Source: a virus (Duplodnaviria > Heunggongvirae > Uroviricota > Caudoviricetes). Taken from it: a DNA stretch of 5,266 nucleotides. The notes under the pieces are model-generated. The model was not told the DNA's origin. It made no database searches and was given only the letters and a program-made list of their open reading frames with translations. The stretch is from IMG/VR virus record IMGVR_UViG_2671180283_000015, one strand, 5' to 3'. The position numbers were made by a program, and so were the translations under genes. Positions 1,197-2,818 of this stretch are shown piece by piece. Each line of letters opens with the position of its first letter. Positions within the stretch are counted from its first letter, which is position 1.

Positions 1197-2246
1197 TCAA
1201 ACGATTAAATCCTGAACTTCCCTGACTGTCTGCTCAAAACGTCCGGTCTCCAGTTCAACGCCAATCGCACGACGCCCCAGTGCCATCGCCGCTTTTACCG
1301 TTGAACCCGACCCCATGAAAAAATCTGCAACCAGGTCACCCGGACGACTGCTTGCGCTGATTATCTGCTGCAGCATTTCTGCCGGTTTTTCGCACGGATG
1401 TTTCCCGGGATAGAACTGCACCGGTTTATGCGTCCACACATCGGTATACGGCACCTGCACCGTCACGCCAAAATACCGCCGCAGATGTTTATATTCACTC
1501 AGCAGCTCCGCATACTGCCGGTTCAGTGAGGTATACGTATCCACCAGCTGGTGGTGGAGCTTTTCCAGTTCACCACGCCGATGCTTCTCTTCTGCCACCC
1601 GGGCAAACAGCGCCTGTAATTTCAGATAATCGCTTTCATTCGGTAGCTGCCACTGACTGGCACTGAACCAGTGCGACACCATGTTTTTCTTTCCTGTGGC
1701 ATCTGCAATCTGTTTTGCCGTTATCCCCAGGGCCGCGCGCGCATCACGAAAGTAAGAAATCAGCGGGGCCATCACATGCTGTTTCAGTGCACTGCCCTTC
1801 GCCGCATACCCGGCATCTTTCGGACGATACGGCCCCTGATAATGTTCCGCGAACAGAATGCGCTCTGTGGCGGGGAAATACGCCCGCAGGCTTTCCTTGT
1901 TGCATCCGTTCCAGCGTCCGGACGGCTTCGCCCAGATAATATGGTTCAGCACACTGAAGCGTTCACGCATCATGATTTCGATATCAGATGCCAGGCGATG
2001 ACCACAGAACAGGTAAAGACTTCCGGCAGGTTTCAGCACCCGCCAGAACTGCGCCAGACACTGGTCCAGCCACTTCAGGTAATCATCGTCGCCCTTCCAC
2101 TGGTTATCCCAGCCCTCAGGCTTCACTTTAAAGTACGGCGGGTCCGTGACTATCAGGTCAACAGAATTTTCGGGTAACGACCGGATAAATTCCAGGCAGT
2201 CGGCGTTGATTAACTCACAACTGGATATTTTTACAGTATTAAGCAT
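1197..2246 (-). CDS. Orphan beta-class amino-methyltransferase, probably an N6-adenine DNA methyltransferase
   Basis: The 349-aa product has motif IV DPPY at residues 35-38 and motif I FFMGSGST near residue 310. The IV-before-I order defines the beta class, and DPPY favours N6-adenine. No endonuclease gene is adjacent. The Shine-Dalgarno sequence is weak (AGG about 13 nt upstream). Confidence 0.9.
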   Translation of the reverse strand: MLNTVKISSCELINADCLEFIRSLPENSVDLIVTDPPYFKVKPEGWDNQWKGDDDYLKWLDQCLAQFWRVLKPAGSLYLFCGHRLASDIEIMMRERFSVLNHIIWAKPSGRWNGCNKESLRAYFPATERILFAEHYQGPYRPKDAGYAAKGSALKQHVMAPLISYFRDARAALGITAKQIADATGKKNMVSHWFSASQWQLPNESDYLKLQALFARVAEEKHRRGELEKLHHQLVDTYTSLNRQYAELLSEYKHLRRYFGVTVQVPYTDVWTHKPVQFYPGKHPCEKPAEMLQQIISASSRPGDLVADFFMGSGSTVKAAMALGRRAIGVELETGRFEQTVREVQDLIV

Positions 2247-2278
2247 GGATCATTAAGCCTGTCTCTGATAGGCTCATT

Positions 2279-2297
2279 CTGCTTTTGCGCAAAGCAG
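2279..2297 (-). promoter_or_regulatory. 7-bp stem-loop (CTGCTTT, TGCGC loop, AAAGCAG) 33-50 nt upstream of the methyltransferase start
   Basis: Perfect inverted repeat read from the sequence. It lies in the 5' leader, next to a 4-codon uORF (ATG 2253..2251, TAA 2241..2239) that overlaps the methyltransferase ATG at 2246..2244. Confidence 0.4.
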
Positions 2298-2338
2298 TGG
2301 GCCTGAGGTTTGCTTGTGAACCCAACGCATGAGCAGAT

Positions 2339-2369
2339 GGCTGGTGGGTGCCCCTAACACCCACCAGCC
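2339..2369 (-). repeat. Perfect 12-bp inverted repeat (GGCTGGTGGGTG, 7-nt spacer, CACCCACCAGCC) in the methyltransferase leader
   Basis: Read directly from the sequence at 2339-2350 and 2358-2369. No U-tract on either strand, so it is not a terminator; it is an operator-like palindrome or a stable RNA hairpin. Confidence 0.6.
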
Positions 2370-2382
2370 GCCCATTTACCAC

Positions 2383-2410
2383 AAATAAAAAAGCCTTCAC
2401 TGCGGAAGGC
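2383..2410 (-). terminator. Intrinsic terminator immediately after the 65-aa ORF
   Basis: On the minus strand: GCCTTC (2410..2405), loop CGCAGT, GAAGGC (2398..2393), then TTTTTTATTT (2392..2383). Confidence 0.6.
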
Positions 2411-2716: not shown

Positions 2717-2738
2717 AAAAAACCCGCCAGGCGGCGGG
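2717..2738 (-). terminator. Intrinsic terminator (tR'-like) about 45-65 nt downstream of the late promoter start
   Basis: On the minus strand: CCCGCC (2738..2733), loop GCCT, GGCGGG (2728..2723), then TTTTTT (2722..2717). An all-GC 6-bp stem followed by a U-tract. Confidence 0.65.
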
Positions 2739-2780
2739 GTGTAAAAAATCTTCTAACGTCAGGCATAAAACGCCCATCGT

Positions 2781-2818
2781 TAGGGCAAATTTACCACAGA
2801 TTCGGGAAAAATCAACAA
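2781..2818 (-). promoter_or_regulatory. pR'-type late promoter with a sigma70-dependent promoter-proximal pause element (Q engagement site)
   Basis: The minus strand reads TTGATT (2815..2810), a 16-nt spacer, TGgTAAATT (extended -10; hexamer 2793..2788), tgccct, then AACGATGGG (2781..2773). The core GGTAAATTTG...AACGATGGG matches the recalled lambda pR' -10 and initial transcribed pause-inducing sequence. Predicted +1 is near 2781. Confidence 0.7.

Follow-up and report, generated by a model that had tools for sequence, protein, structure and literature searches.

The closest described relatives of the locus that we report here are the pR'-qut-tR' region of phage lambda, the P-late/gene 23/t-late region of P22, and the corresponding regions of phi80 (gp17), HK225, SfV and the K-12 prophage Qin (ydfT/quuQ). 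We follow PMC9388147 in defining such a cassette as a Q gene, a pR' with a Q-binding element, a sigma-dependent pause element and a terminator. The lambda Q-binding element is 13 bp long and is found in the DNA before the pause element; its positions 1-4 are touched by the helix-turn-helix body of Q and its positions 11-13 by the zinc-ribbon arm (PMC9388147). The lambda 6S RNA is found in lysogens and has been recovered with Hfq by RIL-seq, with no role assigned to it (bioRxiv 10.1101/2024.10.31.621285). In the case of StxS, constitutive transcription from pR' is stopped at tR' and leaves a short RNA in lysogens that can act as an Hfq-dependent regulator (PMC7547250). The concept of a regulatory RNA derived from pR' is established, and it is not new here.

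The stretch of DNA that we analyzed (the window) is 5,266 nt long and carries all of its genes on the minus strand. It is the late-regulatory and "moron" region of a lambdoid prophage, with the following genes and related features:

5078-4020, minus strand: DUF968/HNH protein, first in the gene order
4019-3639, minus strand: RusA, second in the gene order
3642-2821, minus strand: Q antiterminator gene, 273 aa (Pfam PF03589, E = 3.8e-49, with a DnaJ CXXCXGXG-like stretch)
2818-2717, minus strand: late promoter to terminator element (predicted), between the Q gene and the 65-aa ORF
2594-2397, minus strand: 65-aa ORF from the ORF listing, the first gene past tR' (Pfam TrmB, E = 0.0065, below the cut-off)
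2410-2393, minus strand: second intrinsic terminator (terminator scan), overlapping the stop codon of the 65-aa ORF
2246-1197, minus strand: DNA methyltransferase of the N6/N4 type, downstream cargo (Pfam PF01555, E = 4.3e-43)
1147-1072, minus strand: tRNA with a CAT anticodon, ileZ-type (ARAGORN and Rfam)
971-895, minus strand: tRNA Arg-TCT (ARAGORN and Rfam); homologues are annotated argO in phiP27 and Sakai
198-8, minus strand: STnc100-family RNA (Rfam RF02076, 138 bits against a gathering score of 47, E = 2e-31)

The match of the 65-aa ORF to TrmB is a weak one to a winged helix, and phage records label its homologues either hypothetical protein or TrmB-family regulator. The tRNA with the CAT anticodon is called Met by ARAGORN, and its counterparts in phiP27 and the O157 Sakai prophages are annotated ileZ (tRNA-Ile, CAT). 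The STnc100 match is on the strand of the late transcript, downstream of the tRNAs; according to a 2026 preprint, STnc100 is related to the prophage sRNA PasD, and pasD genes lie near lambda-family Q genes.

The window matches many E. coli prophages at about 96% identity over its full length, and in an Escherichia albertii contig Q is 97% identical and the leader is identical. A 136-nt query taken from 2835-2700 is matched in 1684 of 5426 complete E. coli genomes, in 1512 of which at least 80% of the query is covered, and the carriers include the O157:H7 Sakai prophage Sp6 and many ST131 strains. The Sp6 leader maps to about 1554208-1554273 on the plus strand of NC_002695.2, 39 nt past ECs_1524. 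Within the element, all that RefSeq annotates at these E. coli loci is the last part of the antitermination protein gene. The operon that contains stx2AB in phage Stx2_EH1910 is headed by the same cassette.

We consider it very probable that the element between the Q gene and the 65-aa ORF is a lambda-type Q-dependent late-gene regulatory cassette of a lambdoid prophage. It is an ordinary and very common member of a textbook class, known here from its sequence, and its parts are the following:

2815-2810, minus strand: -35 hexamer TTGATT, read from the sequence, placed where lambda, P22 and phi80 also have their -35
2809-2794, minus strand: 16-nt spacer TTTCCCGAATCTGTGG, ending in TGG and so giving a TGn extended -10; holds the candidate Q-binding element GAAT...TGG
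2793-2788, minus strand: -10 hexamer TAAATT, identical to the pR' -10 of lambda and P22
2781-2773, minus strand: predicted start A2781 and pause element AACGAT followed by GGG (+1 to +9), identical to lambda +1 to +9
2781-2755, minus strand: predicted 5'-terminal stem-loop of the transcript (+1 to +27), AACG/CGUU with inner stem GGGCGU/AUGCCU (minimum-free-energy fold)
2754-2739, minus strand: A/U-rich linker UAGAAGAUUUUUUACA, unpaired in the fold; the most variable part of the leader among close relatives
2738-2717, minus strand: intrinsic terminator tR' (terminator scan), with a 6-bp all-GC stem CCCGCC/GGCGGG, loop GCCU and U6

The preliminary description of this DNA had noted a near match between the -10 and initial transcribed region and the lambda pR' pause sequence and had proposed an alignment to lambda, and that alignment supports it. 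The start of the lambda 6S RNA (NC_001416 position 44587; L001 position 788) is the first A of AACGATGGG, six bases after TAAATT. It equates to A2781 in the window, which we assigned as the predicted start by this homology and which is likewise 6 bases past the -10, at a distance of 39 nt from the Q stop codon. From about -15 to +9 (GGTAAATTTGnCnnAACGATGGG) the window agrees with lambda pR' at 20 of 23 positions, and from +1 to +9 (2781-2773) the two are identical. Counting against the cassette, the spacer is 16 nt long and that of lambda is 17 nt and different in sequence, and the two hexamers match the consensus at 8 of 12 positions. A generic promoter scan with a threshold of 9 did not call the predicted late promoter for this last reason.

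In an alignment of 28 diverse leaders, the second and sixth positions of the pause element (A2 and T6) are the sole invariant columns. Sigma region 2 reads the -11A and -7T of a -10 hexamer, and A2 and T6 are the equivalents of these two bases. Among close relatives, the pause element varies to AATGAT and AATAAT, which are as near to TATAAT as AACGAT or nearer. Since these variants keep A2 and T6, they indicate purifying selection on function.

The gene immediately upstream of the predicted promoter encodes a Q protein that can be aligned with lambda Q end to end, at 31% identity. Compared with lambda Q, it has an insertion of about 66 aa, which brings additional CxxC motifs (zinc-ribbon; DnaJ CXXCXGXG-like match, E = 6e-7). 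Lambda and P22 (gp23) have the short form of 207 aa, in lambda without the insertion. Most of the members that we sampled, including those of phi80, HK225, SfV and Erwinia, Klebsiella and Yersinia phages, have a long form with an insertion of about 45-70 aa and an extra CxxC...CxxC. Close homologues of the window Q are annotated quuQ or antitermination protein Q, and on these features we place it in the lambda-Q family, in a long, QuuQ/phi80-like subgroup.

The insertion falls in the region that corresponds to the DNA-contacting zinc-ribbon arm of lambda Q. The spacer of the late promoter has a GAA and a TGG that recur in the family (lambda TTGAATAAAATTGGG, HK225 TTTCCCGAATCTGTG, and also P22 and phi80-type promoters), and the phi80 record annotates a Q site within the equivalent spacer. 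It is therefore plausible that Q binds in this spacer, at GAA(T)...TGG, and the stretch CCCGAATCTGTGG is where the candidate element would lie. The distance from GAA to TGG is 2 bp shorter in the window than in lambda, so homology alone does not place the element.

At the other end of the leader, the stem-loop of tR' (2738-2723) corresponds to +44 to +59 and its TTTTTT ends at 2717, or +65, so the first terminator does end about 65 nt from the predicted start, as had been proposed. The hairpin is kept in relatives, with variant loops and wobble pairs. For the predicted 66-nt leader RNA, the fold (-21.9 kcal/mol, z = -2.8) consists of a 5' hairpin, then an open linker rich in A/U, and last the terminator. 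The coordinates given in the preliminary description all hold on the minus strand. Sequence and homology also support its reading of a late promoter of the lambda type, followed by a sigma-dependent pause element and an intrinsic terminator; the gene that directly precedes the promoter is a Q of the lambda family.

By homology with lambda, the sigma-70 RNA polymerase of the host would start at A2781 on the minus strand, sigma region 2 would re-bind the -10-like AACGAT on the non-template strand, and the polymerase would pause at about +16 to +18. The bases U17 and G18 together with G8 would fit the consensus elemental pause. In the absence of Q, the polymerase would resume, stop at the hairpin and U6 (+44 to +65) and let go of a transcript of about 65 nt. 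When Q is present, it would bind the promoter spacer, load onto the paused complex and make it resistant to terminators. The modified polymerase would then pass tR' as well as the terminator at 2410-2393 and transcribe the 65-aa ORF, the methyltransferase and the tRNAs, and late transcription would continue to the lysis and structural genes beyond the window.

It is plausible that the 65-aa ORF, the methyltransferase and the tRNAs depend strictly on Q. A generic scan found no consensus promoter between tR' and the tRNAs, and because the same scan also misses pR' itself, we give its silence on internal promoters little weight. Just past the second terminator (2374-2383, minus strand), the 10 bases spanning the TGn and -10 of pR' are repeated as TGTGGTAAAT and followed by GGG. 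The hexamer of this repeat is TAAATG, without the final T, and the same sequence is present in Stx2_EH1910; it may be the vestige of another late promoter. The intergenic gap that separates the 65-aa ORF from the methyltransferase (2240-2392, minus strand) is predicted to be strongly structured (-72.7 kcal/mol, z = -3.8), with a long perfect hairpin GGCUGGUGGGUG...CACCCACCAGCC that has no U-run. Rfam gives one weak, sub-threshold match in this gap, to P26 on the opposite strand (E = 0.078).

The one claim of the preliminary description that does not stand is that the leader is unusually short. To survey leader lengths, we collected Q homologues from phage records with annotation and, by a search with a 6-sequence Q alignment, from genomes, one for each species. 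A leader was taken to begin at the A of the pause element, chosen by score, and to finish where the T-run of the first intrinsic terminator ends. The survey comprises 49 distinct leaders of the lambda-Q family, from phages and enterobacterial genomes, in which the pause element agrees with AACGATGGG in at least 6 of 9 positions. Their median length is 64 nt, 44 of the 49 are 80 nt or shorter and three are longer than 100 nt. The window leader is 67 nt by the survey rule and 65 nt to the last T of the run, so it is typical of its family, and the 194 nt of lambda is the outlier. The simple terminator rule of the survey misses lambda's own tR', and one leader (L121) was mis-picked at 93 nt and is truly about 71 nt; the latter leaves the conclusion unaffected.

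Existing annotations agree with the survey. The P22 record has the 5' nucleotide of P-late at 37887 and t-late at 37917-37945, which gives 59 nt, and the phi80 record annotates a -35, a Q site, a -10 and a terminator about 75 nt from the start. Terminators equally close to the start are annotated in the HK225 and SfV records, and in Qin of E. coli K-12, whose layout is no different, the leader is about 64 nt long. In all, we found the order of -35, GAA...TGG spacer, -10, AANNNT-GG, 5' hairpin and terminator in 16 phage records and at about 47 genomic loci from many enterobacterial genera.

Within this common layout, the window shares with lambda the Q family (PF03589), the -10 TAAATT, the bases AACGATGGG at +1 to +9 and an intrinsic terminator that Q reads through, which in the window is a prediction. 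It differs in that the lambda leader overlaps orf-64 and the window leader has no ORF. P22 has a lambda-family Q, the identical -10 and AACGAT, and a short leader, but its leader is unrelated to that of the window past +8. The phi80, HK225, SfV and Qin loci have long-form Q proteins of 250-271 aa with the same insertion, the same layout, and leaders of about 55-78 nt by the survey terminator rule. Their Q proteins are 40-61% identical to the window Q, and their spacers and terminators differ from those of the window; the pause element of phi80 is AACGCT, where the window has AACGAT. SfV also has the 65-aa ORF and the methyltransferase downstream in common with the window, although its Q-pR' module is a different one.

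Two further observations concern other Q types and other assemblies. In PhiR5_1 (L005 2430-2525) and phiP27 (L004 2460-2525), the same terminator is reached through another short upstream sequence, GTTAAGAGTGGTTACTTCGCCACACAGCTTAA, and the hairpin of PhiR5_1 starts about 70 nt past the stop codon of its Q gene. Short leaders may thus also go with Q proteins of other types. We also noted 207-aa lambda-type Q genes in assemblies labelled Bacillota, Pseudomonas, Bradyrhizobium, Shewanella, Kitasatospora and others (L150-L167, L180). These are often on low-coverage contigs of about 48.4-48.5 kb, and the lambda genome is 48.5 kb, which suggests contamination of the assemblies with lambda DNA.

The beginning of the leader has a further feature that recurs in the family. 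In nearly all members, the first four or five bases of the transcript, which are the RNA copy of the pause element, can pair with bases at about +19 to +27, and in both lambda and the window the pairing is between AACG(A) and (U)CGUU. We see this stem in the window (2755-2781, minus strand) and in the homologous leaders L001 and L087-L175. A helix of at least 4 bp beginning at nucleotide 1 or 2 can be formed by 42 of 44 leaders; when the partner region was shuffled 1000 times, the number of such leaders averaged 17.9 and did not exceed 26. Divergent leaders show matching changes on both sides of the stem, found by hand: AACA/UGUU, AAUGA/UCAUU, GAUGA/UCAUC, AACAA/UUGUU and AAUCA/UGAUU.

In a covariance-model alignment, which captured close relatives only, 95% of the cells of the 5' stem are paired, against 23-49% when the partner is slid. 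The same alignment, in which the leaders start with AACG or AATG, gave no excess of covariation over shuffles because only close relatives were captured. Since the leaders are related by descent, we regard the evidence that compensatory changes keep the 5' stem across the lambda-Q family as suggestive and not conclusive. Two constraints appear to act on the bases with which the late transcript begins: sigma reads them in the DNA, and in the RNA they form a strand of the 5' stem. Text searches of the literature returned no report on this 5'-terminal stem, and its conservation in lambda-Q-family leaders is possibly a new observation.

One alternative to a leader that is no more than a by-product of the late-gene switch is that the terminated RNA of about 65 nt is in addition a stable, Hfq-associated, trans-acting sRNA, made constitutively in lysogens and analogous to StxS and the lambda 6S RNA, which also provide its precedents. 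We think this possible but unlikely. Its predicted shape is that of an Hfq-dependent sRNA, with a 5' hairpin, an open linker rich in A/U and ARN, and a GC hairpin followed by U6, and the element is very widespread. The open linker is also where a seed would be expected, but this is the part of the leader that varies most among close relatives, and the parts that are conserved are accounted for by the pause element, at the DNA level, and by the terminator. With a permissive threshold, Rfam placed no family on the leader, and the homologous Qin site of K-12 has no annotated ncRNA.

In Table S1B of Tree et al. 2014, the Sakai Sp6 interval ECs1524...ECs1526, downstream of Q, ranks 58th among the Hfq-CRAC intergenic regions. 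The interval is long, it includes other RNAs (the EcOnc04/ECs1525 homologue), and the strand column is ambiguous, so the entry is not assignable to the leader. We also considered the Pas, EcOnc and HnrS prophage sRNAs as the identity of the leader, and none is described at this position.

The comparison with StxS of Stx1 and Stx2a phages is one of concept, in that a pR' transcript is stopped at tR'. StxS lies downstream of a clade of shorter, 144-aa Q proteins and is made as a 258-nt precursor that RNase E processes to 74 nt (PMC7547250), whereas the window Q has 273 aa and the predicted primary product is itself about 65 nt. We take the 144-aa clade to be a Q family other than that of lambda Q.

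A 5'-terminal stem without unpaired 5' bases stabilizes an RNA against decay that depends on the 5' end. The leader could be, in roughly a third of complete E. coli genomes, a constitutive Hfq-associated RNA and the lambda-Q-family counterpart of StxS, with a 5' stem that would stabilize both the leader and the late mRNA, but we regard this as quite improbable.

The terminator is in addition a boundary between blocks of homology. The window and phage Evi have the Q gene, promoter and leader in common, and the homology to Evi stops at 2717, the last T. In 22 Stx2-type phage records, homology to the window begins no earlier than the first base of the stem (2738 or 2737), and in those that we inspected the upstream module differs (a 126-aa Q in PhiR5_1, a different Q and a 1.2-kb ORF in phiP27). 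Among loci with a Q at least 93% identical to that of the window, at least seven unrelated sequences follow the T-run. Based on where these blocks of homology end and begin, we take the 22-bp terminator to be the crossover point that joins the module of regulator and promoter to the cargo. Extra genes are known to be inserted past pR', as described in a passage of Tree et al. 2014 (PMC4104026) citing Juhala et al., and the joint at the terminator agrees with this.

The same hairpin after unrelated upstream sequences, in phages with other Q types, means that it can act as a general module-end terminator. A second alternative is that it mainly ends the upstream early or middle operon after Q, with the likeness to pR' a decayed relic, of no present function, in a cryptic prophage, as many E. 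coli prophages are defective. The prophage as a whole may be defective, given that the window spans only 5.3 kb of it. However, the Q ORF is intact and of full length, and promoter, pause element and terminator are kept almost base for base across hundreds of loci, including those of the inducible or free phages Evi, vB_EcoS-640R1 and Stx2_EH1910, with A2 and T6 retained in the variants of the pause element. We therefore find a relic very hard to believe in. That the match to lambda pR' is a chance resemblance can be rejected with near certainty: the motif is short, and nothing further favors chance, but the pattern GGTAAATTTGNNNNAACGATGGG has a single occurrence in the window, 200 dinucleotide-preserving shuffles produced no match to it even when 2 mismatches were allowed, and its place just after a lambda-family Q gene recurs family-wide.

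None of these results alters the understanding of Q antitermination. What they correct is a lambda-centered expectation, in that a leader of 55-80 nt is normal in the lambda-Q family and one of 194 nt is unusual. Two small points of possible use are the apparent dual constraint on the start of the late transcript and the terminator as the precise place where modules of Q and promoter, on the one side, and of cargo, on the other, are exchanged. For the biology of these prophages, the predicted late transcription start is now placed, and with it the control point for a methyltransferase and tRNAs in a very common type of E. coli prophage in which this region has gone unannotated. In sister phages such as Stx2_EH1910, the same control point would govern Shiga toxin 2.
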